Source of the DNA: Escherichia coli
Lineage (GTDB): Bacteria; Pseudomonadota; Gammaproteobacteria; Enterobacterales; Enterobacteriaceae
Length of the DNA stretch: 64,000 bases
Strand: one strand, 5' to 3'
NCBI RefSeq assembly: GCF_003018255.1
Contig: NZ_CP027440.1
Both the position numbers and the translations under genes were made by a program. Of the stretch, positions 1,475 through 43,380 are shown piece by piece. A model generated the notes under the pieces. The model made no database searches and had not been told where the DNA came from. It saw only the letters and a program-made list of their open reading frames with translations. The stretch's first letter is position 1. Every line of letters begins with the position of its first letter.

Positions 1475-2971
1475 TTACTGTACAGGTGGAATATCCGTCA
1501 CTTCAGGATGTACGTCATCCGTGACAACAGATGTGGCGGCAGCCGCAGTCGATGGGGTCATGATTTGATCCCAGGCCGCCTGCAACGCTTTCATGTTAAA
1601 TTCCGGCTCGCCTTTCGGCTGCAGCAGTATTAACGCCATATCATTCGACAACTGCTGACGCAAATCCTGATTTAACATCTCCACCGTCAGGCTGTTAAGG
1701 AAATCCTGACGCAGTTTCTGATATTGCTCCGGCGCGATATCGACGACCTGATTTTGCAACGAACGCATCCGCTGACCCATCAAAATATCGGTATCAGCTC
1801 GCGCATAGGCGGCAAACAGTTTCTGCAGCTCCAGTTTCTTTTGCGCCACTAACGCATTGAACTCTTCTTCCGGCAGACCTTTATCGCGAACCTTCGCCAG
1901 TTCACGCGCCACCAGATTAAGGTTGCTGTTCAGCTTGTCGTTTGGTGATTCGATGTTGATGGCACACTGCGCACGCAGATACAGCACACGGCAGTCAAAT
2001 CCAAGACCGATGTCTTTGCTGTTACTGGCGCTTAACGCTTGCTGAACATGCCAGAACAGCGCCTCACGGGCCAGGTCCGCACGCCAGTAGCGCAGCAGTG
2101 CGGCTGATTCACGAATCGGCTGCCACGGCGTATCCCACATGATTGATAACCGGTCCTGACGCACCGCGTCAGTCATAATACTCACCGCTTCCGCACGCAG
2201 CGGAGAAAGCGTCGGCACCGGAGCCGGTGTTTCACGTTTGCCTTTCAGTTCGCCAAACGTTTTATTGATTTGGTCGACGACCGAGCGCGCATCCACGTTT
2301 CCCACCACCAGCAGCGTCATTGCATCCGGGGTGTACCATTTCTGATAGAAATCTTTAATCTTTTCCGCTTCAACGGGTTGTTTCAGCGGATCGGCAGGAT
2401 CGTGACCTAACAAGGTTGATCCTTTCAGACGATAGCGCCACCAGCCCTCTTTAGTATCGGCAGGCCAGGTTGCCACCATGTCCTGACTTTGCAGCGCGTG
2501 GTTGATGGTTTCTGGTGTGATGGTCAGTTTGCCAGTGGCATTTGCCAGATAAGAGAGCGCTTCTTTCAGCAAGTCGTTACGGTTATTGGGCAAACTCAGA
2601 TTAAACAGCGTGGTGTCATAAGAGACAATTACTGGCGGCATCGGGCGTTTAGGGTCGATCCCCTGCTGCCACAATGAACGCGCCTGTGCTGCTTCAAGGC
2701 CACCGCTTTGCGTTAACGCAATACGAGGGATGGCGTGGCTGTAACCGCTCTGTTGTGTACTTTCGGCGAGCGAACCGGTATTAACCAGCAGGCGAATTTC
2801 AACACGATCGCTAGGACGCTGGGGCGTGGTCAGCACTTGCCACTGTAAACCGTTGGAAAGCGTCCCCTGTTGCCATGCTGGATCAGGCTGGAGCGCATCT
2901 GCCTGCACATAGCCAGCAGTGGCCATCATCAGCAAACCGCCCGCTAAAAGTCGAATTTTTGTGCCCTGCAT
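1475..2971 (-). CDS. yhjJ: periplasmic M16-family zinc peptidase-like protein YhjJ
   Basis: 498-aa ORF with an N-terminal signal-like segment (MQGTKIRLLAGGLLMMATAGYVQA); length and sequence match recalled YhjJ. Confidence 0.9.
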   Translation of the reverse strand: MQGTKIRLLAGGLLMMATAGYVQADALQPDPAWQQGTLSNGLQWQVLTTPQRPSDRVEIRLLVNTGSLAESTQQSGYSHAIPRIALTQSGGLEAAQARSLWQQGIDPKRPMPPVIVSYDTTLFNLSLPNNRNDLLKEALSYLANATGKLTITPETINHALQSQDMVATWPADTKEGWWRYRLKGSTLLGHDPADPLKQPVEAEKIKDFYQKWYTPDAMTLLVVGNVDARSVVDQINKTFGELKGKRETPAPVPTLSPLRAEAVSIMTDAVRQDRLSIMWDTPWQPIRESAALLRYWRADLAREALFWHVQQALSASNSKDIGLGFDCRVLYLRAQCAINIESPNDKLNSNLNLVARELAKVRDKGLPEEEFNALVAQKKLELQKLFAAYARADTDILMGQRMRSLQNQVVDIAPEQYQKLRQDFLNSLTVEMLNQDLRQQLSNDMALILLQPKGEPEFNMKALQAAWDQIMTPSTAAAATSVVTDDVHPEVTDIPPVQ

Positions 2972-3150
2972 GTGAACCCCTGATCAACTATCCTGGTAAT
3001 AAAAAAACTGCCCGTTGTCGGTCAGTCTAAATGACGTTAAAAACACTTCGTGTTAGACCGCAAGAACATGAAAATGTCACGGAAGAAGTGAAATAAACCT
3101 GAACTCACCCAGGTGGTAAGTTCAGGCACAGGGGTCAATTATGCGCAAAC

Positions 3151-4660: not shown

Positions 4661-6649
4661 CTACTTTTCTTCCAGGTAACTCTCTTCGAAGATTTCAATA
4701 GGGAGTGGGCGAGCAAAAAGGAAGCCCTGGGCAATACCAACGCCCGCTTTTGCCAGCCAGTCGCGTTGTGCTTCAGTCTCCACGCCTTCGGCAATCATTT
4801 GTAAGTTCAGGCTTTGCGCCAACATGATAATTGCAGCAATCATGCTGCTATCTTCCGGCAAGCCTTCAACAAACATTTTGTCGATTTTCAGTACGTCGAT
4901 TGGCAACGATTTCATATGCTGCAGCTGACGCAGCCCTGCGTAGCCCATGCCGAAATCATCCAGCGCCACCCGAACTCCGGCATTGCGCAGCGGACGGAGG
5001 ATTGCCACCGCAGCATGAGGGTCGTCAATACGTCGGCTTTCTGTCACTTCCAGAATCAGTGTTCCCGGCTGAATGCGATAGCGGGTTAACAGTTCCAGCA
5101 TATCCGCTACCATATTCGGGTGCATCAGTTGTAGCGCTGAGAGGTTTACCGACAAGGGCAGCATAATGCCGCGCTCTTGCCAGGCAGCAAGCAGTCGACA
5201 AGACTCTTCCAGCACCCAGTGACCAACGGTAACCATCAGCCCACAGCACTCAATGCGATCGATTAAGCCATCCGGCAGATCCCAACTGCCATCCGGTTGC
5301 TGGATACGCAGTAACACTTCCGCACTGACCAGTTTACCGCTGGTCATCTCGACCTGTGGCTGTAACCAAATCGCAAATTGATGATTTTCCAGTGCATTAA
5401 GGATATCGCTCTCTTCCGTCAACCGCTGCTGGGCGGCTTCCATCTGCTGCGGATCAAAGAACTGAATCTGATTTTTGCCTTTATGGCGAGCGGTAAATGC
5501 CGCAGAAATAGCGCGACTGTAAAGCTGTTCGGCGGTGAGATCGCCGTAGAACATCGCCACGCCAATGCTACAGTGCGGACGGAGTTGAATACGTTCAATC
5601 GGCAGGCGCTCGCTCATGATAGTGAGCACTTGCTGACCTAATGTGATAGCGTGCCACGGTTCCTGTACACCGTTGGCAATGACAGCAAAGTCATAACCGC
5701 TAATCTGCGCGAGGATCATGCGTGGCGACAGTACCGATTTGAGTTTTTCCACCAGCGTCAGCAGCAGAATTTCTCGTTGCGCCTCTTTCAGCACGCCCGC
5801 AGTATCACGCAGGGTTTCACAGGTGATGATCATCAGCGCGGTGGTTTGTTTACGCGCGACAACCTGCTCCAGCATCTCCATCAGCAAGGCTTTGTTCGGC
5901 AAATCCGACACCGGGAAGCGCATCGCGTTTTCGTTCTGTTCTTCATAATGGCGCTGCAGCAATTGCTGGTTGAGGTTGTAACTGCGCACCAGCATACCGA
6001 TTTCATCGTCCTGATGCAGACGTGGTAATGCCAGTTGGTGACCAACAAGCTCCTGGGCTGGGATGGCGTTAAGTTCGCGAGCAATATTGCGTAACGGATG
6101 TAAAATCAGTCGATTAATACACCAGCTGATGGCGACGGTCAGGATAAGCGACAAAAGTAAGTAAATGGTCACTAACGTTGAGAGGGTGCTCATCACGAAC
6201 TTATACATACGGAAGGAATCCGCCTGTAGCACCAGATAGGCAATTGGCTGCGGATTTGCCGGACGTTCGAGCGAGTAGACGCCCAGCGAGATTTGAACCG
6301 GTAGCTCAAACAGGCGAGTAACCATTACCGGCACCGGACGCTCTGGAATAAAACTTTTACGCAGCGCCTGGAACTGGTTGGGCAGCACCACATCGGCACG
6401 GCTGACCACGCCTGCCGGTTTAATGCTGGCAAGAATAGCTTCCGCTTCGGGAATATCGCCTTTCAAAATAGCTGAAGATAAGGGTTCGCGGACAGAGCGA
6501 GCAATGCTTTCCAGTTGCGTAGCCGTGTTATAGCGATTCTGCTGGACCAGATGGAACAGCAAAACGGTGCAAAAAATAAAAACGAACACCAGGACAACGG
6601 CTGCCACCATTGCCATCTGCTTGATTGTTAACGAGCGACTTACGCGCAA
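4661..6649 (-). CDS. pdeK: c-di-GMP phosphodiesterase PdeK (YhjK), HAMP-GGDEF-EAL membrane protein
   Basis: 662-aa ORF with an N-terminal TM segment, a degenerate GGDEF region and a C-terminal EAL domain (EVTE...[10 protein letters not shown]...KIDKMFV). Confidence 0.9.
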
Positions 6650-6730: not shown

Positions 6731-9700
6731 TTACCAGTCGGCGTAAGGTATCAGCGGCTGCGGCGGTAAATCCATGTCACCCTGCCATCCGGCGGCGGAA
6801 TAACGTACGTAGAGCAGGAAATGGCTGGGTGCGTAATCTTTCGCCTGCTGGATATCAATTGCCGTGCCGACAAACCAGTTGGAAGTAACACGTCGTTCAA
6901 GTAATGCCCGCGCCGTATAGCCGAAGCCCTGACTGCTGCCGCCATCGTTGGATTGCCGCGCAGCTTCTTCCTGCCAGTCGGTCGGGATCAGATTCATCAG
7001 CGGATAACGCGGCATGGTTTTGGTGCGTGAATGCGACCACGAGCCAGACGCCCCCAGCTCCCACGACCAGTTTTCCGTGCGCTCCCGCCACATCACCGGT
7101 ATGGCAAACGACAGGTATTCCTGCGGGCTGTAGTAACCGCCCTGACCGAGTGAGTAGCCACTCAGGTCTTTGTCGTAATGCCAGATCATGTTGTTCAGGC
7201 CGATTGTGACGCGGCGATTGTTCTGGTTAATGACCTTATAGTAATAGCCCGTCATCCAGCGCACACGCCAGTTATCTTCGACATTTTTACCGGTTAACTG
7301 GTCGCCACTAAGCGATGCCCAGACGCCGTTTGCTTCACCTTTATCGTAGCTCAGGCTTAGCCCCACGCCGTCGGCACGCACGCCGCCCCATTTTTTCCCG
7401 GTATTGCTCGGGGAGTCTTTTTGCCCACCAAAGGCCAGCAAAGAACTGGAGATGGGCCGACGGTGGGCGTTAACGGTGTAACCCAGCGGCCCGATATCAT
7501 CGCTGTAACTGATGCCGCCGACCACATCCACCACGTTGAAGCCCATCGGCGTGGTGCCGATATCCCAGCTCCAGGTGTCGTTGCGCCAACCGACCGCCAC
7601 GCTGGCACCGGAATCCGACTGGCTGCGGTTGCCGCTACAGTCCTGTAATGTACAGGTGCCCCAGTTGTCATCCCATTTACCATCGGCATTAGTGGAGAAA
7701 CTGCCGACGTTCATATTGACGAAATCACTGCGAAAGAACATCCGCCCGTCAGAATACGGCGCATCCACCTGCAACATGGTAGTGTGCGCTTTCAGATCGG
7801 AGTAACCACCGGTGCCGCTCGAACCCCAGTAATCATGCTCAAGGGTGACGTTAAGATCCTGCTGGCGATAGAGGTCCGCCGCATCGCTGCGCACGCCGCG
7901 TTTCAGCCAGTCATCTTTCTCGTCATTGCGGGTCAGTCGGGTAAAGGTGTCGTTATCCAGCGGACGCGTCGTGGTCACACCGGATGCAACCATCGCGTCT
8001 TTGTAGGTTTCCAGCGCCTGCGTTGGATCGCCCGCCTGCGCTTCAAACTTCGCACCATCACGCAGTACCATCGCACTTTCCATCGACGGCGGCTGAGATT
8101 TTGCCAGCGGGATCAACTTATTAAACGTCTGCTGCGCCGCTGCGGTATCGCCAAGCTGCGCCTGTGCCAGCGCCACGCGCCGCTGAGTGTTCAGCGAGGC
8201 GTTATCGGTGGCAGGCAGCTTCGCCAGCTGGCTACGTGCCGCCGCTTTGTCACCGGCAGCAATATCCACTTCCGTCAGACCAAGAATGGCATCGGCGTTA
8301 GTTGGCTCCCGCGTCAGGACATTCTGATATGCAGCGCGAGCGGCGGTGTAATCACGTCGTTGTTGCGCCCAGTCAGCCAGCGTGAGGTCTATGCGCGTGG
8401 AAGGTGGTTGCTGGCGCAGCATCGCTTCCGCTTCAGCTTCTTTGCCGCTTTCTCGCAGGCGATTAGCGGTTTCCAACACCTGATCGCTTTGCAGTCGATT
8501 AACCAGCTCCTGAATATTGCTGCTCCACTGCGCGCGCGGCAGGCTGTTGATATGCGCCAGCGCCGCTCTGTCCTGGTCATGACCAGAGAGATACAGCCCG
8601 TAAGCGTAAACCTGCTCCGGGTCGTTCGGCTTCTGCTGCGCCAGATTACGCATTAACGTATCGGCCTGGCTGCGTTGTCCGGCCTGGCTGCGTTGTCCGG
8701 CCTGCCAGAGATCCTGTGAAAGTCGGTAAGTAATCCATACACTGCCGGGGTCCAGCGCCAGTCGTTGCCGCTGAAGTGCTGCCGCCTGCGCCCATTTCCC
8801 CTGGTTTTCCAGTGCCTCTGCCTGCTGTGCCAGACGGTCGTTTTGCAGGCTGCGTTCGATATCATCAATGCTGCGCCGCTGACTGGCAGAGAGCGAGGCG
8901 ATAAACGCTTCGGCTTTTTCTGGCGACTGCTGGCGGTAAATATTTGCCAGCCCGCGCACGGCGTTAGTGTTGCTACTGTCCATACGCAGCGTCTGCTGGT
9001 AATAGCGTTCAGCGGCGGGGTAATCTTTGCGTGCCATCGCCACATCGCCCAGCCCCAGCACCGCATAGCTGTCGGTGTTATCGACATTACGTGCCTGCTG
9101 GAACAACCGTTCCGCCCGGTCAGGATTATTGGCTTTCAGCGCAGCATCGCCCTGCTGGATTGCCAGCCAGTAGCGGTTTACTTTCAGCAGACTGTTCCAT
9201 TTGTCGTTGTTGCTGCTGTGCGGGTCCAGGGCGAGGGCTTTTTCCAGATTCGCCACCGCATTGGCGCGATCGCCTTTCTGAGAATACGCCTGGCCCAGCG
9301 CCCCCAGAGTCTCACTGTCTTTCGGGTTCGCCCGCACCGCCTGTTGTAGTTCGGGAATGGCTTTACCCGCCATACCAGAGTCCACCGCCGCTAAACCTTG
9401 CGCACGAGCGCGGAAAGCAGGGTCGGCCAGCTGTTTTTGCTGTTCTGCCAGTTGCGATTGTGCAGCCGCCACGCTATCGCCATCGCTAAAGATCGAGAGA
9501 TATTTTTTCAGCGCCGACACGCTGGCATCGCTGACGGGCATGTCTTTAATCTGCCCGTACCAGATTTTAGAGGCCCCCTCGCGCCCGGCGTTTGATTTCG
9601 CCATCTGTTCCAGGACAGCAAAACCTTCGTCACGGCGATCGCTACTAAACAGCAATAGCGCCAGATTGTTTTGCAGGCCCGTATTGCCCGGCGTATCCGC

Positions 9701-10222
9701 ATTAATGCGTTTTAGCTGATTAATCGCTTCGCCACGGCGAGCTGGAATTTTCGCCACCGTACTCCAGTACTCGACGGCAATGTCACCTTCCGGCGGCGCA
9801 CCGTTGAACAGTTTGTTGTAACTCGCCACAGCTTCTTCTGCATGACCGGTCGTCGCCTGCAATCTTGCCTGTTGCAGTGCCTGACGACCATCCGGCGTGG
9901 AAAGCAACATTGTGGTCCGCGACGATTTATACGCATTTGAACTCGGCGCTAACTGCGACAGCCGATCGAGCTGTTTTTGCGCGCCATCAATATCGCCCTG
10001 ACGTAACAGAGAACGGAAACGGGCGGCAACGACGTCCGGGTTATTCGGATCAATAAGTTCCAGACGATACAACGACTGTTGCACCAGGTCTTCACGATGG
10101 GTCGCTTCGCCTAACCGAACTTGCTCCAGCAACTGTTGCTGAGCGGTTGGTGCTGCCTCGACCATCGGCATGACGGCCAGACCGAGGGAAAGCGTGAATA
10201 TGTTTAGTGTGAATTTGCGCAT
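6731..10222 (-). CDS. bcsC: cellulose synthase outer-membrane subunit BcsC (TPR repeats plus C-terminal beta-barrel)
   Basis: 1163-aa ORF with signal peptide, multiple TPR-like repeats and a C-terminal beta-barrel-like region; matches recalled BcsC except for a 6-aa QAGQRS duplication. Confidence 0.93.
8662..8697. repeat. perfect 18-bp tandem duplication (2 copies) inside bcsC
   Basis: CGGCCTGGCTGCGTTGTC occurs twice back to back, followed by a partial third copy CGGCCTG; on the coding strand this gives [12 protein letters not shown] in frame. Confidence 0.9.
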
Positions 10223-11310
10223 TCCTGGCCCCAGTCAGGTAATAACTCACCTTTTGTCGAGAAGCGGAAACGGTGTTGATCCCAGCCTTGTCCAAACAGG
10301 GTCAGCACATAGTTGTAATAGGCATCGCTGCCAGGAAAGTTATCGGCCACGCGCTGGCGCTGAACGGCCTGCGCATCGCGGTTTTGTAAAAAGGGCAGCA
10401 TGGCGGCAGAAAAACCGACCGGTCCTTTACCCTGCGCTTTCCCCGTAGCCACATCCACTTTTTCCGGCGGATAACCGTTTTTCTCAGTGAATGTCGCCAT
10501 CGGTTTAAACCGGTTGAGCATCCGCGCTTTTTGCGGATCGCTGTCAGGCATCATGCCTACCCACATGTAAACGCGGATAGCGTCGTAGCTGCTGATCAAT
10601 GTTTTTTCGGCTTTTAGCTGCCAGCCTTTGTCTTTCTCATAGCGCACCCAGTCTGGCGAAAAGCCTTTCGGGGCGGTTTCCAGCAATAAACGTTGATTGG
10701 TTTCGCGCAGCGTGGTCCACGGCGCGCCAAAGCGGGTGAAATACTGCGCCAGCGTCGGCGGCAGGTAGCTGGGGTTAAAACGCCAGCTGTTATCCTCAGC
10801 AAACCCCACTTTGCCCGGTAACAACATGGAGCCCAGCCCAGGCACCGTCACCACTTCCTCCCGCGCGATACGTTTTAGCAATGCGCTGCCGATGTCGGTA
10901 TAACGCTGCTCTTTCCACAAACGCCCCGCCTCCAGCAACGCCCAGGCCATCCAGACATCACCATCGGAGGCCGAATTGCTGTCCAGCACTTCCCACTTAC
11001 TGTTCTCTTTCTTGCCCCACAGCCAGGCGGGCAAATGTTCTGTTAAAGAACCCTGAGCGAGATTGTTCTGCGTCCAGTCGAGAAGATTATCGAAAGCTGC
11101 ACGGTCGTTAGCCGCCAGGGCAAAGAACATGCCGTAACTTTGCCCTTCGGAGGTGGTGATTTTGCGCGCGTCGCTGGGGTCGATGACGCGCCCTTCCTGA
11201 CTGATGTAATCCTTTTTAAACTGCTCCCAGGCAGGCCAGGTACAGGCTGCCTGAACACTAAAGGCAGCCAGCAGCAGCATCGTCACGAGTCCACTACGCA
11301 ACACATTCAT
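10204..11310 (-). CDS. bcsZ: endo-1,4-beta-glucanase (GH8) BcsZ
   Basis: ORF 10204..11316 begins at TTG; the ATG at 11308..11310 gives [21 protein letters not shown]... (368 aa), matching recalled BcsZ. Overlaps the bcsC start by 19 nt. Confidence 0.9.
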
Positions 11311-11316: not shown

Positions 11317-13656
11317 TTACTCGTTATCCGGGTTAAGACGACGACGACTAATAATACGCAGCAGACGCCACAGTACCCACGCCAGCAATATCACACTGAT
11401 AGCCGCCAGCACCGCCAGCAGAATCGGATGGTTTGCCAGCGCATACCACAAGCGCTCGAACCACGGCAGATGACCTACGTAATAAACATCGCCAACACGT
11501 AGGCTGTTGATACCGGACTCGCGGATCACCGCGACCGAACCGAACATGGTGGCGCGTTTGCCGCTATCGTTCACCGCATCGTTAAGCATTTCATAACCGC
11601 GTGGGCTATCTGCCAGCAGCGCAATCACGCTGCGCTGGTCGTTATACGGCGACTGGAAGCCAATCACCGCCGCCATCGCACCGGAAGAGGTCAGCGTTGA
11701 CTGGGTTTCTGCCGCGCGATCGCTCTCGTCCGGCACAATACCGGGGAACGGGGTCTGGCGCATCGGCGTTTTTACCCAGCTTTCGGTAGCCTGCACCAAC
11801 AGGTCGATCTGCTTGTCATCTTTCAGTTTGTCCGGGATACCACCGACGATCATGATGTCGGCATCTTTGCCCTGAATGGTGCTGCCATCATCGGTCACCG
11901 TCAGGTTAATCGCCGGGAAGCCCGTCTGCGCACCGATAAAGCCAACGGTATTCAGCAAGGTTTCCATCTGTGCTTCGTTTGGCGTTTTCGGCATCACGGT
12001 GATGGTTTGCGACAAATCCGCCATCCGGCTGAACGGGAAGCCCGCGTTAGCAAAGGCGCGTAGATCCGGCATCGGGATGAAGTGGTAATACTTCGAGAAG
12101 TCGATGGTGGAATCATCACCAATCACCACATGATTCTGCACCGGCTGGAAGGTAATGCAGTTATCCACCGAACCGCCCGGCATCGGGTTCATATACTCAA
12201 AGTCAAAGCGCAGCTGGTTGGTCGCGCCCAGTTTCAGCGCCGGAATAGAGACATCCGTTTTGCCATCCAGCAAACCTTGTAATACCGGAATACGCAGCAG
12301 CAGGCGGTTCGCCTCCTGTTTACTGCTCAGGTTGAAGGATTGCAGGAACTGGTTATTCAGGCTGATATCCATCCGTGAGCTGTCTTTCACTGGCGGCATG
12401 GTGTAGCGATAATTAATATCCATATCAATGCCGGTACTGCGCATCAGGTAGAGATCCGGTGGCAGGTTTAGCGAAACGTTAATCGCTGCTGGCTCAAGAC
12501 CGCTGGATTGTAACTGTTCTTCATAGGTTTTCAGTTCACCAAAGGTAACCGGACGATCGGTACGCACCCAGTTCGGCGCATCGTACGGCTTACGCGGTAG
12601 CAGCGGTTTCACTTCATTCACTACCACGCTTTCACCACGGAACAGAATGTTACCCTGAGCGATACCTTTCGCTGCCTGCAACAGGTCTTTGTCGTCACGA
12701 CCAAACACCACCAGCAGTTTGACATAAGGATTCTGCGGATGGTTGATCATTTCAATCACCGGGGCTTTTACCGCCGGATGATCGCGCAGGAAGTCCGGGC
12801 GTTTGTCATTGGTGGCAAAAACGATGGCATTGCGATCCGGCAATTGGTTATAGAGCACCGGGAAGTTCTGCCCACGCCAGCCAGAACGCGAACCAAACCA
12901 CGAGGCAACAATGGCAGATGCTTGTTGCAGCCCAACATCCGGCGCACCCGCAAAGACCATCGGCAAGGTGTTGGTGCGGTTATCACGCGGGTCAAAGAAT
13001 GGCACCGGGAAGTGTGACAGGTCATTCTTCACATTCAGGGTCTGATAGGTCAGATCCAGTCCACTGCTCCGCCCAACATCCAGCCAAAGCGTGGTGCTGG
13101 CCGGGTTTTCGCACACGTCCTGATAATGACCGACAAACTCCAGCCGCACACGGTTGAAGTCGGTAATAAACAGTGGGTTAATGGGCATTTGTGCCAGCGT
13201 TTTTTTACCCAACTGTTCTTTGGTCACTGGCAGCACGCCCATCAGTTCATCATTGAGATAAACCTTTAACTGCGACTGGACAGGCAGTAACGATGGCGAT
13301 GGCGTGTATTCGAGATTGAGCATCGCCTTCGTCACCACTTCATCGCTGCGCATACCAAACTCAATGCTGCCGTTCGGGTTAATGCCACGTAGCACCATGC
13401 TGCCCGGCGGCGGCGCAATTTGCGCAAAGGTCAGCTTCACATCACGCGAAGGACCGTTCTGCGCCACGACTGGCGCATCAGCGCCCTGCACGCCCGGCAT
13501 CACTTGCCCCACCTGCGGATTTTGTTCCGTCTGGGCGGCTACAGCTGGCTCAGCATTGATCAGTGGTTGCGTTGCTGGCGTCGCCTGCGTCATGAAAGAG
13601 GGGAACGCACTCATCCCCATAGCCACTGCACAAATCCAGAATAGTTTTCTTTTCAT
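11317..13656 (-). CDS. bcsB: cellulose synthase periplasmic subunit BcsB
   Basis: 808-aa ORF; the internal start MKRKLFWICAVAMGMSAFPSF (ATG at 13654..13656) gives 779 aa and matches recalled BcsB. C-terminal TM anchor present. Confidence 0.9.
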   Translation of the reverse strand: MKRKLFWICAVAMGMSAFPSFMTQATPATQPLINAEPAVAAQTEQNPQVGQVMPGVQGADAPVVAQNGPSRDVKLTFAQIAPPPGSMVLRGINPNGSIEFGMRSDEVVTKAMLNLEYTPSPSLLPVQSQLKVYLNDELMGVLPVTKEQLGKKTLAQMPINPLFITDFNRVRLEFVGHYQDVCENPASTTLWLDVGRSSGLDLTYQTLNVKNDLSHFPVPFFDPRDNRTNTLPMVFAGAPDVGLQQASAIVASWFGSRSGWRGQNFPVLYNQLPDRNAIVFATNDKRPDFLRDHPAVKAPVIEMINHPQNPYVKLLVVFGRDDKDLLQAAKGIAQGNILFRGESVVVNEVKPLLPRKPYDAPNWVRTDRPVTFGELKTYEEQLQSSGLEPAAINVSLNLPPDLYLMRSTGIDMDINYRYTMPPVKDSSRMDISLNNQFLQSFNLSSKQEANRLLLRIPVLQGLLDGKTDVSIPALKLGATNQLRFDFEYMNPMPGGSVDNCITFQPVQNHVVIGDDSTIDFSKYYHFIPMPDLRAFANAGFPFSRMADLSQTITVMPKTPNEAQMETLLNTVGFIGAQTGFPAINLTVTDDGSTIQGKDADIMIVGGIPDKLKDDKQIDLLVQATESWVKTPMRQTPFPGIVPDESDRAAETQSTLTSSGAMAAVIGFQSPYNDQRSVIALLADSPRGYEMLNDAVNDSGKRATMFGSVAVIRESGINSLRVGDVYYVGHLPWFERLWYALANHPILLAVLAAISVILLAWVLWRLLRIISRRRLNPDNE

Positions 13657-13666
13657 CGCGTTATCA

Positions 13667-16285
13667 TCATTGTTGAGCCAAAGCCTGATCCGATGGTTGT
13701 GCCGTTTCGCTCCGCTCCGGGCGGCGCGGAATAAACGATACAACCCAGGAAACCAGAGAAGTCAGCACACGGAATATGCCCTTCACCGAAGAAGGCGCAA
13801 ACTCCGCCAGATGGCGGTAGCCACGGAAGCCGAGCTTCAGAATATCCAGCAGACTTTCCAGCGGCTTATCTTCCGGATAGCTGTCCTGCCAGAGCGCCCA
13901 TGTATCCGCACGGGCAAACGTACACTGCACAAAATCGATATGTTGCTGGGTGGTGAGCGGCATTAATTTCAACCCAACTTCATTACCCATCACGCGCGCC
14001 ACCTGGGTCGGGAAGACGTATTCCTGCTGACCGCGTTTAAGCAACAGATTCACTTTCTGCCCTTCCAGAATCTGCGCCTGACCGTTGATCTTGATCCCCA
14101 AACCACCGTCGGAGAAATCCTGAACGGTACACGAGAAGAGGTGACCATCTTCGCGGGCAATTGCTGCGGGCATCGTCATCTCCACGCGGTGCGATCGGCG
14201 TACCTGTTTGCTTTCTACCGATACTGCGACTGCGCCGCCGAGAATAATCAGGTTGTAGAATACCCACACCATACTGACGACCACGGTGAGCATCTCAGTT
14301 GGCGGACCATAGAAGTAGCGCCAGATCCCAACCGCTACGCCCACCAGGTTGAGCAGAACAAGGAAGATGTAGGGCCGCGAGATCACCCAGTCGACGTACT
14401 CTTCTTCCACCAGTCCACCTTTGGCGGTGACGTTAAATTTGCCTTTGTGCGGGTTAATCAGCGCCACCAGCGTCGGTGGTGCGATATACCACGCCAGCAC
14501 TGTTTCGTAGATTTCACTCCAGAAAGAGTGGCGATATTTGCCCTGGATCTTCGAGTTAGTCAGGCTGGCATGGATCATATGCGGTAGCACGAACAGGGCG
14601 ATCATCAACGCTGGCGCGTAGATGATGTAGGCATGAAACAGCAGGAACGCCAGCGGCGCAGTCAGGAAGATCAGCCGTGGAATGCCCGACAAGAAATGGA
14701 ACATGGCGTTGACATAGCACAGCCGCTGAGCAAACTTCAGCCCTTTACCGGTGAGTGGGTTATCGAGACGGAAGATTTGCACCATCCCGCGCGCCCAGCG
14801 AATACGCTGACCGATATGCGCCGAGAGACTTTCGGTCGCCAGCCCCGCTGCCTGCGGAATACGCATATACGCTGAGGTGTAGCCACGACGGTGCAGACGC
14901 AGAGAAGTGTGCGCATCTTCGGTTACCGTTTCGACAGCAATTCCGCCAATCTCATCCAGCGGCTTACGGCGAATCACCGCACATGAACCGCAGAAGAAAG
15001 TGGCATCCCACATATCATTGCCGTCCTGCACCAGACCATAAAACAGCGTGCCTTCGTTCGGCGTTTTACGAAAACGCCCCAGGTTGCGTTCAAACGGATC
15101 CGGCGAGAAGAAGTGGTGCGGCGTCTGCATCATCGCCAGCTGTTTCTCTTTCAGGAACCAGCCCATGGTCATTTGCAGGAACGATCGCGTTGGTACGTGG
15201 TCGCAGTCGAATATCGACACGAACTCGCCTTTGGCATATTTCAGCGCATTGTTGATGTTGCCCGCTTTCGCATGTTCATGAGTGGTACGGGCGATATATT
15301 TCACCCCCACGTTTTGCGCAAACTGGCGAAACTCTTCCCTGCCGCCGTCATCGAGGATCCAGATGTTCAGCTTGTCTTTCGGCCAGTCGATACCCAGCGA
15401 AGCGTAAATGGTATTTTTCACCACGTTGAGATCTTCGTTGTAAGTCGGGACAAAGATATCCACCGACGGCCACAGCGACATATCTTTCGGCAATGGCACC
15501 GGCTGACGATTCAGAGGCCATACGACCTGGAAATAGCCGAGCACCAGCACAATCCACGCGTACGTTTCGGCGAACAGCAGAATAAGCCCGCACACCAGGC
15601 TGACCGGATCGTCCCAGTTCAGCGTAGAGGTGTAGCGCCACCAGATATAACGGCAAGAAACGGTCAGCGACAGCACAATCAACATTAGCGCCGAGAAGCG
15701 CCCCGGCATCCGCCGTACGATCAGCGCTACACCCCACAGCAGCATCAGGAAAATAAACTGCGCCAGCGGGTTAAACGGCTGGGTAACGCAGATTAACGCC
15801 AGAATCAGCGAGAAGGTGACGATGATACCGAGGATCAACCGCCGCGCCCCGGCGCTCAAATGGCCGAGTTCTTTTTTCTCATCGAGATGCTGTGTTTTAT
15901 GGCTAACGCGCTCAGGCAGCTCGTTCATCCATTGATGGTAACGTCCACGAATATTTTGTAGACCTGAAAATGCCCGCCTGCGCGGTTTCGGCGTTTCTTT
16001 GCGCGATGCACCGATCAGTAACCAGCATGTTTGAATAAGATAACGGACCGGGTCCAGCGGACGCGGACGCGAGGCGTTGATATGCGGATACAGGTTTTTA
16101 TGTTCTGCGCGAATACGCTGCCAGCGCGGGTGCTCCAGCGGAATAAAAATCCAGGCCAGGATCATCCAGAAACAGCCAAGCGTCGCGCTGAAAGCCGACG
16201 CGCCGTGACGACGATAATCGCGATAACGCCCAATAAGCCGTGCGTTGACCGGCGGGATAAGCAACCACCGGGTCAGGATACTCAT
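13667..16285 (-). CDS. bcsA: cellulose synthase catalytic subunit BcsA (GT2 plus PilZ)
   Basis: Internal start MSILTRWLLIPPVNARL (ATG at 16283..16285) gives 872 aa; contains the GT2 motifs (DDG, FFCGS, QRIRW) and a C-terminal PilZ region. The ATG overlaps the bcsQ stop (ATGA). Confidence 0.95.
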   Translation of the reverse strand: MSILTRWLLIPPVNARLIGRYRDYRRHGASAFSATLGCFWMILAWIFIPLEHPRWQRIRAEHKNLYPHINASRPRPLDPVRYLIQTCWLLIGASRKETPKPRRRAFSGLQNIRGRYHQWMNELPERVSHKTQHLDEKKELGHLSAGARRLILGIIVTFSLILALICVTQPFNPLAQFIFLMLLWGVALIVRRMPGRFSALMLIVLSLTVSCRYIWWRYTSTLNWDDPVSLVCGLILLFAETYAWIVLVLGYFQVVWPLNRQPVPLPKDMSLWPSVDIFVPTYNEDLNVVKNTIYASLGIDWPKDKLNIWILDDGGREEFRQFAQNVGVKYIARTTHEHAKAGNINNALKYAKGEFVSIFDCDHVPTRSFLQMTMGWFLKEKQLAMMQTPHHFFSPDPFERNLGRFRKTPNEGTLFYGLVQDGNDMWDATFFCGSCAVIRRKPLDEIGGIAVETVTEDAHTSLRLHRRGYTSAYMRIPQAAGLATESLSAHIGQRIRWARGMVQIFRLDNPLTGKGLKFAQRLCYVNAMFHFLSGIPRLIFLTAPLAFLLFHAYIIYAPALMIALFVLPHMIHASLTNSKIQGKYRHSFWSEIYETVLAWYIAPPTLVALINPHKGKFNVTAKGGLVEEEYVDWVISRPYIFLVLLNLVGVAVGIWRYFYGPPTEMLTVVVSMVWVFYNLIILGGAVAVSVESKQVRRSHRVEMTMPAAIAREDGHLFSCTVQDFSDGGLGIKINGQAQILEGQKVNLLLKRGQQEYVFPTQVARVMGNEVGLKLMPLTTQQHIDFVQCTFARADTWALWQDSYPEDKPLESLLDILKLGFRGYRHLAEFAPSSVKGIFRVLTSLVSWVVSFIPRRPERSETAQPSDQALAQQ

Positions 16286-17034
16286 GATGCACTCCCGACT
16301 GGCGTTTTCAGCCCGGAATAGTTCAACAGGCACCAGTTCGCCAGCGTCAGTATTTCTTCAGCCGCCAGCGCATCACTGCGAAATTCACCGACTGGTTGCT
16401 TAGCTGCCAGACATTCAGCCATCGCTTCATCACGATGAATGAGCATCGGCAGCAATCGGCGCTGGCTTTGCAACCAAAGCTGGTAAATATCGTCCTGAAC
16501 CTGGCTGCCAATACGGAAGTCATTAATCAAAATATGTGCACCATCCGGCAGCGCTTGCTGATGCAGTCGGATATGGCAGTTGGCATCCACATTGACGATT
16601 GCCAGCGAGTGATCGCACAAACTCAGCAGCTGGTGGGTTATCTGCGAGGCATCACGCGGTAAGTCAATTAAAATCCACTGGTAACGCCCGCTGGCTTTTA
16701 GTTGCTGTAAGCCGGTGCAAATATCGCTCAGCCGGGTTTGCCAGTGCTGTGGATTTTCTTGTTCTTCAATGGATAACTGACCAAAAGGCAGCAAATCGAG
16801 CTGCGAGGTATAGCGCAACCCGGCGTCACGCCAGTCCTGGCCATCCAGCATAGCTCTGGCCCAACCCTGACGGTGGGTAAAATCAACGTTAAATGACAGG
16901 CGCAACAAGTTGTCCGGGCAGGCATCGACCACCAGGACATTTTCTCCCAACATTTGTAATGACCAGGCTAATGCGGCGGTGATGGTTGTTGTCCCCACGC
17001 CTCCCCGAACCCCCTGCAATCCCAGTACGGCCAT
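16282..17034 (-). CDS. bcsQ: cellulose biosynthesis ParA/MinD-like ATPase BcsQ, intact
   Basis: 250-aa ORF MAVLGLQGVRGGVGTTTITAALAW...; codon 6 is TTG (Leu), so the reading frame is uninterrupted. Confidence 0.9.
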   Translation of the reverse strand: MAVLGLQGVRGGVGTTTITAALAWSLQMLGENVLVVDACPDNLLRLSFNVDFTHRQGWARAMLDGQDWRDAGLRYTSQLDLLPFGQLSIEEQENPQHWQTRLSDICTGLQQLKASGRYQWILIDLPRDASQITHQLLSLCDHSLAIVNVDANCHIRLHQQALPDGAHILINDFRIGSQVQDDIYQLWLQSQRRLLPMLIHRDEAMAECLAAKQPVGEFRSDALAAEEILTLANWCLLNYSGLKTPVGSAS

Positions 17035-17045
17035 TCACCAATCCC

Positions 17046-17234
17046 CTACTTTTGTTGCGCAAACTCTGCCAGCAACGGCCAGCGTTTTAATGCCGCGGCC
17101 AACTGTTCGCGTTGGGAAATATCGGCATAATCAATATCAGGCAGTGAAAATGCCTGCTTTAACGCCAAAATATCATTCTGGAAGATATAGCCTATCGCGG
17201 GATCAGGCAGAGTATCTGGTTCATTGTTATTCAT
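17046..17234 (-). CDS. bcsR: cellulose biosynthesis protein BcsR (YhjR)
   Basis: 62-aa ORF MNNNEPDTLPDPAIGYIFQNDILALKQAF... immediately upstream of bcsQ; matches recalled YhjR. Confidence 0.85.
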   Translation of the reverse strand: MNNNEPDTLPDPAIGYIFQNDILALKQAFSLPDIDYADISQREQLAAALKRWPLLAEFAQQK

Positions 17235-17506
17235 TTTTCTTGATCCCTATGAAATAACCGTACCGTTCATGAGACAATTCTAACTGTGAGCATTTCGTCG
17301 GTTTATTGTTTACGGCGAGACGGGAATGTGCTCACTTTTTGACTTTCCGTTACGCAACAGAAAAAGTTAAAAACGAAAAGACTAAAATCACATGTCTTGT
17401 GACCTGCTAAATTGATTCACATGCTAAATCTGATAAGTTTTAATTTCAATGGTAGGTTTATTTCTTAGCTTTCGCTAGTAAACTGATAATCAGACAAAAT
17501 GTTGAC
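17235..17506. promoter_or_regulatory. divergent bcsRQABZC / bcsEFG promoter region
   Basis: 272-bp AT-rich intergenic region between the divergently oriented bcsR and bcsE starts; individual promoter elements not resolved. Confidence 0.5.
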
Positions 17507-19078
17507 ATGAGGGACATTGTGGACCCTGTATTCTCTATCGGTATCTCATCATTATGGGATGAGCTGCGACATATGCCAGCAGGCGGCGTCTGGTGGTTTA
17601 ACGTCGATCGCCATGAAGATGCTATCAGTCTGGCGAATCAAACAATTGCATCCCAGGCTGAAACCGCACACGTCGCGGTCATTAGCATGGACAGCGATCC
17701 AGCGAAAATCTTTCAATTAGATGATTCTCAAGGGCCGGGAAAAATAACATTATTTTCAATGCTAAATCATGAAAAAGGTCTATACTATTTGGCCCGTGAT
17801 TTGCAGTGTTCTATTGATCCCCATAATTACCTTTTTATTCTTGTTTGCGCAAATAACGCATGGCAAAACATTCCTGCCGAGCGGCTTCGCTCATGGTTGG
17901 ATAAAATGAATAAATGGAGCCGGCTAAACCATTGTTCGCTTTTGGTAATTAATTCCGGAAATAATAACGATAAACAATTTTCATTGTTACTTGAGGAATA
18001 CCGTTCACTTTTTGGTCTTGCCAGTTTGCGTTTTCAGGGCGACCAACATTTGCTGGATATTGCTTTCTGGTGCAACGAAAAAGGGGTCAGCGCCCGTCAG
18101 CAGCTTAGCGTTCAGCAACAAAATGGTTGCTGGACATTAGTTCAACACCAGGAGGCGGAAATCCAACCACGCAGCGACGAAAAACGCATTCTGAGTAATG
18201 TTGCTGTACTGGAAGGTGCGCCGCCGCTATCGGAACACTGGCAACTGTTCAACAATAACGAAGTCCTGTTCAATGAAGCCCGTACCGCTCAGGCGGCGAC
18301 GGTGGTCTTTTCTTTACAGCAAAATGCACAAATCGAGCCACTGGCCCGCAGCATTCATACTCTGCGTCGCCAGCGCGGTAGTGCGATGAAAATCCTCGCA
18401 CGGGAAAATACCGCCAGCCTGCGCGCCACCGATGAACGTTTATTATTGGCCTGCGGTGCAAATATGGTTATCCCGTGGAATGCGCCACTCTCCCGCTGTC
18501 TGACGATGATCGAAAGCGTGCAAGGGCAGAAGTTTAGTCGCTATGTGCCGGAAGATATCACTACCTTGCTGTCAATGACCCAGCCGCTCAAACTGCGTGG
18601 TTTCCAGAAGTGGGATGTGTTCTGTAATGCCGTCAACAACATGATGAATAACCCTCTATTACCTGCCCACGGTAAAGGCGTTCTGGTTGCCCTACGTCCG
18701 GTACCGGGTATCCGCGTTGAGCAAGCCCTGACGCTATGTCGCCCTAACCGTACCGGCGATATCATGACCATTGGCGGTAATCGGCTGGTGCTGTTTCTCT
18801 CATTCTGTCGGATTAACGATCTGGATACCGCGTTGAATCATATTTTCCCATTGCCTACTGGCGACATTTTCTCAAACCGAATGGTCTGGTTTGAAGATGA
18901 TCAAATCAGTGCCGAGCTGGTGCAGATGCGCCTGCTTGCCCCAGAACAATGGGGCATGCCGCTGCCTTTAGCGCAAAGTTCTAAACCGGTCATCAATGCC
19001 GAGCACGATGGTCGCCACTGGCGACGAATACCAGAACCAATGCGACTGTTAGATGATGCTGTGGAGCGCTCATCATGA
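17507..19078 (+). CDS. bcsE: c-di-GMP-binding cellulose biosynthesis protein BcsE (GIL domain)
   Basis: 523-aa [41 protein letters not shown]..., matching recalled BcsE. Confidence 0.9.
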
Positions 19079-19266
19079 TGACCATCAGCGATATCATTGA
19101 AATTATTGTCGTTTGCGCACTGATATTTTTCCCGCTGGGCTATCTGGCGCGGCACTCTTTGCGACGCATTCGCGACACCTTACGTTTGTTCTTTGCTAAA
19201 CCTCGTTATGTTAAACCGGCCGGGACGTTACGCCGCACGGAAAAAGCCAGGGCAACCAAAAAATGA
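19075..19266 (+). CDS. bcsF: small membrane protein BcsF
   Basis: 63-aa [38 protein letters not shown]... with a single TM helix; 4-nt overlaps with bcsE and bcsG. Confidence 0.85.
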
Positions 19267-20943
19267 CTCAATTTACGCAAAATACCGCCATGCCTTCTTC
19301 CCTCTGGCAATACTGGCGCGGCCTTTCCGGCTGGAACTTCTATTTTCTGGTTAAGTTCGGCCTGTTGTGGGCGGGATATCTTAACTTCCATCCGCTCCTC
19401 AATCTGGTGTTTGCCGCGTTTCTGCTGATGCCCATTCCGCGCTACAGCCTGCATCGCTTGCGCCACTGGATTGCCCTGCCGATCGGCTTTGCTTTGTTCT
19501 GGCATGACACCTGGTTGCCTGGCCCGGAAAGCATAATGAGCCAGGGTTCGCAGGTGGCGGGGTTCAGTACCGATTATTTAATCGATCTTGTCACACGCTT
19601 TATTAACTGGCAGATGATTGGGGCCATTTTTGTTTTATTCGTGGCCTGGTTATTCCTGTCACAATGGATTCGCATTACCGTTTTTGTGGTTGCCATTCTG
19701 CTATGGCTGAACGTACTTACCCTGGCGGGACCAAGTTTCTCCTTGTGGCCAGCCGGTCAACCGACGACCACTGTAACAACGACGGGTGGTAACGCAGCGG
19801 CAACCGTTGCGGCGACGGGTGGCGCACCGGTAGTGGGTGATATACCCGCACAAACTGCACCGCCAACAACAGCAAACCTTAACGCCTGGCTGAATAATTT
19901 CTATAACGCGGAGGCGAAACGTAAATCGATCTTCCCGTCTTCGCTGCCCGCTGATGCTCAGCCATTTGAACTACTGGTGATTAATATCTGTTCGCTTTCC
20001 TGGTCGGATATTGAAGCCGCCGGATTAGATGTCGCATCCACTGTGGTCGCATTTCGATATTGAGTTCAAGAACTTTAACTCCGCCACCTCCTACAGTGGC
20101 CCGGCGGCGATCCGTTTACTGCGCGCCAGCTGCGGGCAGACTTCGCACACTAATCTGTATCAACCGGCAAATAACGACTGCTATCTGTTTGATAACCTGT
20201 CGAAACTGGGCTTTACCCAGCACCTGATGATGGGACATAACGGCCAGTTCGGTGGTTTTTTGAAGGAAGTTCGCGAAAATGGCGGCATGCAGAGCGAATT
20301 GATGGATCAAACAAATCTGCCGGTTATTTTGCTGGGCTTTGATGGTTCGCCGGTTTATGACGATACCGCCGTGCTTAACCGTTGGCTGGACGTTACCGAA
20401 AAAGATAAAAACAGCCGTAGTGCCACGTTCTACAACACGCTTCCACTGCATGACGGCAACCATTATCCGGGCGTCAGCAAAACAGCGGATTACAAAGCGC
20501 GGGCGCAAAAATTCTTTGATGAACTGGACGCCTTCTTTACTGAACTGGAGAAATCGGGTCGTAAAGTGATGGTGGTCGTGGTGCCGGAACACGGCGGCGC
20601 GCTGAAGGGCGACAGAATGCAGGTATCTGGCCTACGTGATATCCCTAGCCCGTCTATCACAGACGTCCCCGTTGGGGTGAAATTCTTCGGCATGAAGGCA
20701 CCACATCAGGGGGCACCGATTGTCATCGACCAACCGAGCAGCTTCCTGGCTATCTCCGATCTGGTGGTTCGCGTTCTTGATGGCAAGATTTTCTCCGAAG
20801 ACAATGTTGACTGGAAAAAACTCACCAGTGGGTTGCCACAAACAGCACCGGTCTCCGAGAACTCAAATGCAGTAGTTATTCAATACCAGGATAAACCGTA
20901 CGTTCGCCTGAACGGCGGCGACTGGGTGCCTTACCCGCAATAA
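19263..20943 (+). pseudogene. bcsG: bcsG (cellulose phosphoethanolamine transferase) disrupted by a +1 frameshift
   Basis: Two out-of-frame overlapping ORFs, 19263..20063 (266 aa, membrane domain) and 20029..20943 (304 aa, catalytic domain), total 559 codons after removing the 35-nt overlap. The junction reads GGATTAGATGTCG where an intact frame needs GGATTAATGTCG (extra G near 20028). Confidence 0.75.
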
Positions 20944-21029
20944 GAACGAAAAAGGCCGCAGAGTTTCACCCCTGCGGCCTGATCCGGGCGCAAATTGCCA
21001 TTACGGCAGCCTGACGCCCGCATGACACG

Positions 21030-21137
21030 TTACTTCCGCTTGTTCAGCCAGTTCACGATCATGCTGGCAAGAATGCCAGCAATGATCGGAGCCGCTAAAT
21101 CATGCCAGAAGGCCATGCCCAGTTCTGCGAGCGTCAT
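21030..21137 (-). CDS. ldr: Ldr-family type I toxin, copy 1 (35 aa)
   Basis: MTLAELGMAFWHDLAAPIIAGILASMIVNWLNKRK, the C-terminal 35 aa of the 80-aa track ORF; LdrD-like single-TM peptide. Terminator hairpin AGGCCGCAG...CTGCGGCCT with T-tract just 3' at about 20950..20985. Confidence 0.8.
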   Translation of the reverse strand: MTLAELGMAFWHDLAAPIIAGILASMIVNWLNKRK

Positions 21138-21184
21138 ATAGCCGCCTGTGTTGTAATGACAACGTTTCGCGGCTATTCTTGAGT

Positions 21185-21250
21185 TGTTTGGGTTCAAGAA
21201 TGGCCCCCGTGGTGTTGTCAGGTGCATACCTGCAACGTGCGGGGGTTTTC
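21185..21250 (+). ncRNA. rdl: Rdl-like antisense RNA, copy 1 (boundaries approximate)
   Basis: Plus-strand hairpin GCCCCCG...CGGGGG followed by TTTTCTCT (21203..21249), antisense to the ldr leader; 5' end estimated from the roughly 66-nt Rdl length. Confidence 0.45.
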
Positions 21251-21512
21251 TCTCTCCAGCAAACAATGCCACCAGGGATTAAGCCCCCGCAACATTGCGC
21301 CTCACCGGAACCTTTCCGGCTTGCCGCTGATTCTACGACTGTTTTTCTGCTCCGGAATCCGTCACGTCTTCACTCTGTGCTGCGCATTCCGCAGAATATT
21401 ATCCGCTTGCAACCGTTGCATTTTTCTTACGAAAAAGGCCGCAGAGTTTTATCCCTGCGGCCTGATCCGGGCGCAACTTGCCATTACGGCAGCCTGACGC
21501 CCGTCTGACACG

Positions 21513-21620
21513 TTACTTCCGCTTATTCAGCCAGTTCACGATCATGCTGGCAAGAATGCCAGCAATGACCGGAGCCGCTAAATCATGCCAGAAGGCCATG
21601 CCCAGCTCTGCGAGCGTCAT
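21513..21620 (-). CDS. ldr: Ldr-family type I toxin, copy 2 (35 aa)
   Basis: MTLAELGMAFWHDLAAPVIAGILASMIVNWLNKRK; I18V relative to copy 1. Confidence 0.8.
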   Translation of the reverse strand: MTLAELGMAFWHDLAAPVIAGILASMIVNWLNKRK

Positions 21621-21667
21621 ATAGCCGCCTGAGTTGTAATGACAACGTTTCGCGGCTATTCTTGAAT

Positions 21668-21733
21668 GGTCTAGATGCAAGAATGGCCCCCGTGGTGTTG
21701 TCAGGTGCATACCTGCAACGTGCGGGGGTTTTC
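21668..21733 (+). ncRNA. rdl: Rdl-like antisense RNA, copy 2 (boundaries approximate)
   Basis: Same hairpin and T-tract 483 bp downstream of copy 1. Confidence 0.4.
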
Positions 21734-21995
21734 TCTCTCCAGCAACCAATGCCACCAGGGATTAAGCCCCCGCAACATTGCGCCTCACCGGAACCTTTCC
21801 GGCTTGCCGCTGATTCTACGACTGTTTTTCTGTTCCGGAATCCATCACTTCTTCACTCTGTGCTGCGCATTCCGCAGAATATTATCCGCTTGCAACCGTT
21901 GCATTTTTCTTACGAAAAAGGCCGCAGAGTTTTATCCCTGCGGCCTGGTCCGGGCGCAAATTGCCATTACGGCAGCCTGACGCCCGTCTGACACG

Positions 21996-22103
21996 TTACT
22001 TCCGCTTATTCAGCCAGTTCACGATCATGCTGGCAAGAATGCCAGCAATGACCGGAGCCGCTAAATCATGCCAGAAGGCCATGCCCAGCTCTGCGAGCGT
22101 CAT
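21996..22103 (-). CDS. ldr: Ldr-family type I toxin, copy 3 (35 aa)
   Basis: MTLAELGMAFWHDLAAPVIAGILASMIVNWLNKRK; identical in protein to copy 2. Confidence 0.8.
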   Translation of the reverse strand: MTLAELGMAFWHDLAAPVIAGILASMIVNWLNKRK

Positions 22104-22150
22104 ATAGCCGCCTGAGTTGTAATGACAACGTTTCGCGGCTATTCTTGAGT

Positions 22151-22216
22151 TGTGTAGGTTCAAGAATGGCCCCCGTGATGTTGTCAGGTGCATACCTGCA
22201 ATATGCGGGGGTTTTC
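22151..22216 (+). ncRNA. rdl: Rdl-like antisense RNA, copy 3 (boundaries approximate)
   Basis: Same hairpin and T-tract in the third unit. Confidence 0.4.
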
Positions 22217-22478
22217 TCTCTCCAGCAACCAATGCCACCAGGGATTAAGCCCCCGCAACATTGCGCCTCACCGGAACCTTTCCGGCTTGCCGCTGATTCT
22301 ACGACTGTTTTTCAGCTCCGAAATCCGTCACTTCTTCACTCTGTGCTGTGCATTCCGCAGAATATTATCCGCTTGCAACCGTTGCATTTTTCTTACGAAA
22401 AAGGCCGCAGAGTTTTATCCCTGCGGCCTGATCCGGGCGCAAATTGCCATTACGGCAGCCTGACGCCCGTCTGACACG

Positions 22479-22586
22479 TTACTTCCGCTTGTTCAGCCAG
22501 TTCACGATCAGACTGGCAAGAATGCCAGCTATGACCGGAGCCGCTAAATCATGCCAGAAGGCCATGCCCAGTTCTGCGAGCGTCAT
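22479..22586 (-). CDS. ldr: Ldr-family type I toxin, copy 4 (35 aa)
   Basis: MTLAELGMAFWHDLAAPVIAGILASLIVNWLNKRK; M26L relative to copies 2 and 3. Confidence 0.8.
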   Translation of the reverse strand: MTLAELGMAFWHDLAAPVIAGILASLIVNWLNKRK

Positions 22587-22633
22587 ATAGCCGCCTGTGT
22601 TGTAATGACAACGTTTCGCGGCTATTCTTGAGT

Positions 22634-22699
22634 GGTCTAGGTTCAAGATTAGCCCCCGTGATGTTGTCAGGTGCATACCTGCAACGTGCGGGGGTTTTC
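22634..22699 (+). ncRNA. rdl: Rdl-like antisense RNA, copy 4 (boundaries approximate)
   Basis: Same hairpin and T-tract in the fourth unit. Confidence 0.4.
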
Positions 22700-23061
22700 T
22701 CTCTCCAGCAACCAATGCCACCAGGGATTAAGCCCCCGCAACATTGCGCCTCACCGGAACCTTTCCGGCTTGCCGCTGATTTTACGATTGCTTTTTACCG
22801 TCAGCACCCGGCAATCTTCCTCATTGCGTGATGCCTTCCAGCTTAATTTCTTTATTTGCATTAGTTGCAGTTCATATCCGGGCTGACTCCAGACTGGTAG
22901 TGAAATGCGCAATTTTGTAGAATTGCGCCTCCTCGCGACCTCCCCAGTGAATCTGTTGCCTCATTTTTTACATACTGCGTATTCGACTTCTCCACCTGTT
23001 GCGCAAGAGAAACTGGGTTTATTCATTTTTGCGAGGCCGACTTCTTTCTGGACAGGACTTT

Positions 23062-30858: not shown

Positions 30859-30966
30859 GTCGAGTCGAACCTCCCCGCCCCCGGGGGTTCTCTTCCTCAT
30901 GAGCTACAGATGCAAAAAAGCCTGCTCGTTGAGCAGGCTTTTCGAATTTGGTCGGTGATAGAGGAT
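30859..30966. repeat. 108-bp direct repeat, distal copy (hairpin-terminator plus 19-nt tRNA-Pro 3'-end fragment)
   Basis: Near-identical to 31027..31134 at an offset of 168 bp; contains GCAAAAAAGCCTGCTCGTTGAGCAGGCTTTT and TGGTCGGTGATAGAGGATT, then diverges from the tRNA body. Confidence 0.85.
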
Positions 30967-31026
30967 TACTCGCCACTTCGTGGCTCGCCCTGCGGGCCGT
31001 TGCTGGCGCAACGTTCTCTCGCTTCG

Positions 31027-31192
<166 letters not shown>

Positions 31193-42949: not shown

Positions 42950-43102
42950 TTACTCTTTCAAATTGCAGGCTAAAAATGCCGCCAGCTCATAACTTCCCTG
43001 TTTAATATGCAATTCACACAGTGAATCTCTTACCATCCAGGTAAAAAATAAAAGCGTGAAACAAATCACTATTAAAGAAAGCAATCTATATTTCTGCGGC
43101 AT
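42950..43102 (-). CDS. hokA: Hok-family type I toxin HokA (50 aa)
   Basis: MPQKYRLLSLIVICFTLLFFTWMVRDSLCELHIKQGSYELAAFLACNLKE, a single-TM Hok/Gef-family peptide; ATG at 43100..43102. Confidence 0.8.
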   Translation of the reverse strand: MPQKYRLLSLIVICFTLLFFTWMVRDSLCELHIKQGSYELAAFLACNLKE

Positions 43103-43162
43103 TCCCAGCCTCCTGTGTTGATTTCCAACGAGTAAGAGGCTAACCTTATGGTGTTCAGGCAT
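42950..43162 (-). CDS. mokA: MokA, the N-terminally extended reading frame of the hok locus
   Basis: 70-aa ORF in the same frame as, and ending with, the Hok peptide; analogous to the mok/hok arrangement. Confidence 0.55.
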   Translation of the reverse strand: MPEHHKVSLLLVGNQHRRLGMPQKYRLLSLIVICFTLLFFTWMVRDSLCELHIKQGSYELAAFLACNLKE

Positions 43163-43380
43163 AGGGTAGCCTCACTTTGATTTATAGTCAGGTGGGGCTT
43201 TTCTCTGTCTGCCTTTCGGTGAATACCTGAGACAAACAGTCTCAAGCACCCACAGCTATTCTAGCTTAATAAGTTCGTTTCTTCTCCTTGATATAATCCT
43301 AAAAAAATCTCATAAAATTAATATATGAGACAATCTTTATTCAGCAGAAGATTATTAAAGGTTGCTCTATTATTTAGCGA

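Follow-up and report, generated by a model that had tools for sequence, protein, structure and literature searches.

BcsQ is a MinD/ParA-like ATPase that acts together with BcsR on the PilZ domain of the cellulose synthase BcsA, and it is required for the assembly and activation of the type II (E. coli-like) cellulose secretion machine. The protein has been described from E. coli 1094 (PDB 6YBU/6YB3; cryo-electron microscopy entries 9FNN/9FP0), and E. coli K-12 carries the gene as a pseudogene (b3534). Here we compare these systems with bcsQ in a 64,000-nucleotide (nt) stretch of an Escherichia coli genome (contig NZ_CP027440.1, assembly GCF_003018255.1), which we call the window. It is highly probable that this natural, non-K-12 strain carries a wild-type, functional bcsQ and a complete synthase core together with a truncated phosphoethanolamine (pEtN) transferase, BcsG, and that its cellulose is likely unmodified and probably reduced in amount.

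The K-12 allele is known biology. In MG1655 bcsQ (NC_000913.3 3695233-3695985), codon 6 is TAG and the gene is annotated as a pseudogene. The mutation has been placed in the common ancestor of K-12 (PMC5944007), and repair of codon 6 in W3110 from TAG to TTG gives a cellulose-positive strain, AR3110 (PMC7397504; PMC5944007 agrees on the repair). Both the TTG/TAG polymorphism and its consequence for cellulose in K-12 have been in the literature since 2013, and they are used routinely, as in AR3110. A first-pass annotation of the window had stated that K-12 laboratory strains carry a premature stop at this codon that abolishes cellulose synthesis. The comparison with MG1655 bears out the stop and rules out TTG in K-12, and the restoration of cellulose by the repair agrees with the claimed effect.

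An intact bcsQ in a complete synthase core

The window shares the bcs locus and its gene order with K-12 and has TTG at codon 6, hence no pseudogene. Read on the minus strand, the 5' end of bcsQ is ATG GCC GTA CTG GGA TTG CAG, and the translation contains zero internal stops and zero frameshifts across the whole 250 codons. Both the TTG codon and the open 250-amino-acid (aa) frame of the first-pass annotation are thereby confirmed, and a search of 16282-17034 for an internal stop that the annotation might have overlooked found none. Such an open frame is the expectation for a conserved gene and not a matter of chance. Base by base, the gene differs from MG1655 bcsQ at 18 of 753 nt (97.6% identity); 15 of these differences are silent, two are missense (T107S and F218Y) and one is the stop (T>A, gene position 17).

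We defined the BcsQ family by NCBIfam NF007460 and TIGR03371 and by Pfam PF06564. The window protein matched the equivalog NF007460 with 540.3 bits (cutoff 399), with residues 1-250 lying on profile positions 1-250, and TIGR03371 with 295.8 bits against a cutoff of 157.85; weak matches to MinD/ParA models span residues 4-41. The N-terminal nucleotide-binding loop (residues 9-17, VRGGVGTTT) is the same as in the crystallised protein 6YBU, and the gene order is bcsR-bcsQ-bcsA-bcsB-bcsZ-bcsC, divergent from bcsEFG. Membership in the family is thus indicated by the full-length equivalog match, the open frame with Leu6, the nucleotide-binding loop and the operon context together.

The likeness to E. 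coli 1094 extends to both protein and locus. The two BcsQ proteins have the same length of 250 aa, are identical at 246 of 250 positions (98.4%) and share the GGVGTTT P-loop region, and in both strains the gene is flanked by bcsR and bcsA and overlaps the latter at an ATGA. The four substitutions relative to 6YBU (T107S, D172N, F218Y and A249K) give, as far as the sequence can tell, no sign of a functional change. In the window the overlap of the bcsA start and the bcsQ stop comprises 4 nt (16282-16285), an arrangement compatible with translational coupling and with the polarity that has been suggested for the K-12 nonsense allele (PMC5944007). As codon 6 is TTG, the full 250-residue BcsQ would be translated and ribosomes would reach the overlap with bcsA, in which case the loss of coupling or the polarity proposed for the K-12 TAG allele would probably not apply.

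The other genes of the locus also appear sound, except for bcsG. The bcsC, bcsZ, bcsB, bcsA, bcsR, bcsE and bcsF frames are all full length and stop-free, with 0 to 10 aa differences each from K-12 (Table 1). BcsA keeps the QRIRW, TED and FFCGS motifs as well as the PilZ motifs RRSHR and DFSDGG. Judged by its reading frames, the synthase core BcsRQABZC plus BcsE and BcsF is genetically complete. A type II pEtN-cellulose system comprises bcsRQABZC, which the window has in full, and bcsEFG, which it has incompletely owing to bcsG. The first-pass annotation had named the bcsG frameshift as the only visible lesion of the locus, and it is indeed the only one that breaks an open reading frame (ORF) in bcsRQABZC-bcsEFG.

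The tandem duplication in bcsC is a separate observation. It lies at 8662-8679 on the minus strand and adds one QAGQRS (twice in all) after BcsC residue 506, in the tetratricopeptide repeat region. The bcsC gene of the human isolate JNE23-011 has the same length as that of the window.

Table 1. Positions of bcsQ, its sixth codon and the surrounding bcs genes in the window
Feature	Position	Strand	Description
bcsQ	16282..17034	-	250-codon intact ORF with ATG start; predicted SIMIBI/MinD-ParA-type ATPase subunit of the cellulose secretion system
bcsQ codon 6	17017..17019	-	TTG (Leu); TAG in K-12; change 17T>A described in PMC7397504 and PMC5944007
bcsR (yhjR)	17046..17234	-	62 aa, intact; first gene of the bcsRQABZC operon; 1 aa difference from K-12
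bcsA	13667..16285	-	Cellulose synthase; 872 aa, intact; 2 aa differences from K-12
bcsB	11317..13656	-	779 aa, intact
bcsZ	10204..11310	-	368 aa, intact
bcsC	6731..10222	-	1163 aa, intact; in-frame 18-nt tandem duplication relative to K-12
bcsE	17507..19078	+	523 aa, intact
bcsF	19075..19266	+	63 aa, identical to K-12
bcsG	19263..20943	+	pEtN transferase gene; disrupted by an extra A at 20027; 1681 nt versus the normal 1680
pdeK (yhjK/hmsP)	4661..6649	-	Intact cyclic di-GMP phosphodiesterase gene adjoining the bcs operon

TTG at codon 6 is the wild-type allele of the species

TTG at codon 6 is the ordinary, species-wide wild type of E. coli bcsQ. We probed complete E. coli genomes with a K-12 66-mer (40 nt upstream plus gene positions 1-26, TAG included) and counted exact matches. 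The probe was found in 348 of 5247 genomes, and the other 4899 differ from it. Among the 60 matches listed, all were K-12 or laboratory derivatives, including MG1655, W3110-type strains, DH5alpha, DH1, C600, J53 and others. Because about 93% of the complete genomes are without the K-12 allele, finding TTG carries little information. The window's bcsQ DNA is itself widespread: at least 30 isolates of human, poultry, pig, dog and river-water origin match it with 100% identity, and alleles at least 99% identical to it occur in 1105 genomes.

As far as known, TAG is the K-12 laboratory allele. An EnteroBase survey entered 'truncated.bcsQ' for 37% plus 10% of the sampled sequence type (ST) 10 genomes, and also for ST167, ST617 and ST744, with the codon unspecified in both cases (PMC10881479, Supplementary Data 3), and these truncated genes of the ST10 complex may mean a wider spread. 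An exact-protein look-up of the 242-aa product of K-12 found it in 14,099 collection blocks, and the occurrences read were in genomes similar in size to K-12. In three of the other public genomes with bcsG lesions described below (L008, L010 and L012; bcsQ at locus 2257-3007), bcsQ has lost 2 bp (nt 110-111) despite TTG at codon 6, so that this codon alone is no guarantee of an intact gene. An intact bcsQ is the default in E. coli and by itself no predictor of a cellulose-positive phenotype, and its importance here goes little beyond annotation.

The strain is not derived from K-12

The non-K-12 background proposed by the first-pass annotation holds, on a basis far wider than codon 6. Identity to MG1655 is 97-98% throughout the window. 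The 1443-bp IS150 that lies between hokA and sokA in K-12 (3720633-3722075) is absent, as that annotation had noticed for an insertion element near hokA, and the flanks join across 43134-43174. Three marks of K-12 were thus sought and none was found, namely TAG at codon 6, IS150 next to hokA and near-identity to MG1655; the window also has four ldr toxin gene copies.

These data also dispose of an engineered K-12 strain with a repaired bcsQ. AR3110 was made from W3110 by replacing the TAG of codon 6 with TTG (PMC7397504), and a sequence from such a strain would likewise show TTG. However, bcsQ alone has 17 further nt differences from K-12, the divergence from MG1655 extends across the window, and IS150 and the single ldr copy of K-12 are not what the window has. 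Moreover, positions 39001-64000 are 100.0% identical to natural human isolates. The probability of an engineered origin is practically nil, and we consider it refuted by the divergence from MG1655.

None of 5426 complete E. coli genomes searched matches the window exactly, and the nearest are the Japanese human isolates JNE23-011 and JNE112863. In addition to the identity over 39001-64000, they are 99.6% identical to the window over 1-25000, and their bcsQ is identical to that of the window. The differences from these relatives cluster at 12112-14008, 15569-15884 and 18328-20508, as groups of single-nucleotide polymorphisms of about 1% divergence that are restricted to bcsB/bcsA and bcsE-bcsG; they resemble patches of recombination within the bcs locus. 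For the bcsE-bcsG patch, nothing closer than 99.6% was found among complete genomes. A literature search on JNE23-011, JNE112863 and the read run SRR8931299, whose assembly matches part of the window (see below), returned nothing.

A frameshift removes the catalytic core of BcsG

The informative lesion of the window is the bcsG frameshift. The insertion (+1 at nt 765) lies in the non-homopolymer context GGATT[A]GATG. The native sequence is kept through Leu255; 11 out-of-frame residues follow before a TGA (20061-20063) ends the product at 266 aa. The remaining 304 codons stay open in the original frame from the native Met256 (20029), with 2 aa differences from K-12, and NCBIfam TIGR03368 matches the gene as two halves (profile 2-215 and 216-518). 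The truncated protein retains the five-helix transmembrane domain, the linker and Cys243, and it is without the nucleophile Ser278, the Cys290-Cys306 disulfide, Glu442 and His443 (residue roles: PMC8892547, PMC11379886).

The lesion fits the documented recurrent and independent inactivation of cellulose and pEtN-modification genes in enterobacterial lineages. In E. coli, Shigella and Salmonella, bcs genes have been inactivated repeatedly, bcsG frameshifts included (PMC10881479). Natural bcsG loss alleles such as the frameshift at residue 418 in ST95 clade 6 and the allele of S. Typhimurium ST313 (PMC10881479) resemble the present one in that the pEtN transferase is broken and bcsRQABZC is intact. 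They differ in position and type from the window's insertion, which truncates the protein after residue 255. By exact-protein look-up, the 304-aa C-terminal fragment is on record in 109 collection blocks with different upstream lesions; in other public genomes (L005-L012), bcsG has a nonsense mutation at codon 247 or 129, or its 5' end is rearranged. We dismissed re-expression of these 304 codons from Met256 as functionally irrelevant, as the product would have no membrane anchor or export signal.

Could the insertion be a sequencing or assembly artefact, in a strain that is fully proficient in pEtN-cellulose? The insertion has no exact match among the 5093 complete E. coli genomes that have the region (best, 70 of 71 positions), and the frame downstream of it is undecayed, both of which speak for an error. 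An undecayed frame is, however, equally expected from a recent real mutation, and the inserted A lies outside any homopolymer. The 266-aa product also recurs in a Logan contig assembled from SRR8931299, which is identical to the window over 4737 bp (16263-20999), although this run could be the read run of the window's own isolate and the reproduction thus possibly not independent. On balance we think an artefact improbable. The insertion, if real, is recent, because the 304 downstream codons have not decayed. With bcsG standing last in bcsEFG, the other bcs genes should be free of polar effects.

Expected cellulose phenotype

The 'cellulose-proficient' background of the first-pass annotation is sustained as regards the intact bcsQ and the complete synthase core, and proficiency as such is overstated. 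It is overstated because TTG is the wild type of the species and says little, and because the lesion in bcsG leaves the pEtN transferase without any of its catalytic core. Two further reasons also weigh against our own reading of the strain: BL21 and H10407 are calcofluor-negative despite intact bcs ORFs (PMC5944007), and the 64-kb window does not include the regulators csgD, dgcC and rpoS. On the same side, secretion reportedly requires BcsG in some strains, though not in all (PMC8892547, PMC5944007), and bcsF and bcsG have been called essential in the strain 1094 context (PMC5944007), so that the outcome could be no cellulose. The missense differences from characterised alleles, the four BcsQ substitutions relative to 6YBU and changes in other Bcs proteins too, may also bear on the outcome.

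With BcsG cut after the transmembrane domain and linker and without its catalytic nucleophile, no pEtN modification would be expected. The cellulose output would be unmodified and probably reduced or, depending on the strain, absent.

It has to be weighed whether the strain makes no cellulose at all, either through loss of the BcsG catalytic domain or through regulator defects outside the window. Under this explanation, secretion would be abolished, bcsQ would be irrelevant and the bcsG lesion would be pathoadaptive. The human origin of the closest relatives is in keeping with it, as are the recurrent bcs losses cited above and the independent bcsG nonsense mutations and bcsQ deletion of other public genomes. 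However, UTI89 delta-bcsG still makes an unmodified cellulosic polymer, which gives no pEtN signals in nuclear magnetic resonance (PMC6685106). The truncated BcsG also keeps its N-terminal transmembrane domain, and in Salmonella this domain is enough to support BcsA integrity, the active C-terminal catalytic domain setting the efficiency of secretion (PMC8892547). We therefore regard a complete absence of cellulose as a real but minority possibility and prefer unmodified, probably reduced cellulose.

The preferred reading can be extended to the lineage, though only tentatively. The lineage related to JNE23-011 and JNE112863 might be a natural producer of unmodified cellulose, in which the BcsG stub (residues 1-255) docks on the N-terminal domain of BcsA and stabilises the synthase, with pEtN transfer lost. 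We consider this extension rather unlikely. If it were true, the bcsG frameshift would be a recent adaptive change of matrix chemistry and not a simple loss of cellulose.

Toxin genes and repeats elsewhere in the window

Two type I toxin loci and one pair of repeats were noted outside the bcs genes. At the hokA locus (42950-43174), hokA is an open 50-codon ORF, and the hok/sok-A module may be intact in the strain. Positions 20946-22796 hold 3.8 tandem copies of a 483-bp unit with four Ldr-family type I toxin genes, where K-12 has a single ldrD/rdlD unit; the closest genomes likewise have four ldr copies, and each copy is presumably paired with an rdl antisense RNA. The dppA-proK-eptB intergenic region contains two 108-bp direct repeats (30860-30967 and 31028-31135), which are also present in K-12 and are probably elements of the REP/BIME type (repetitive extragenic palindromes, bacterial interspersed mosaic elements).

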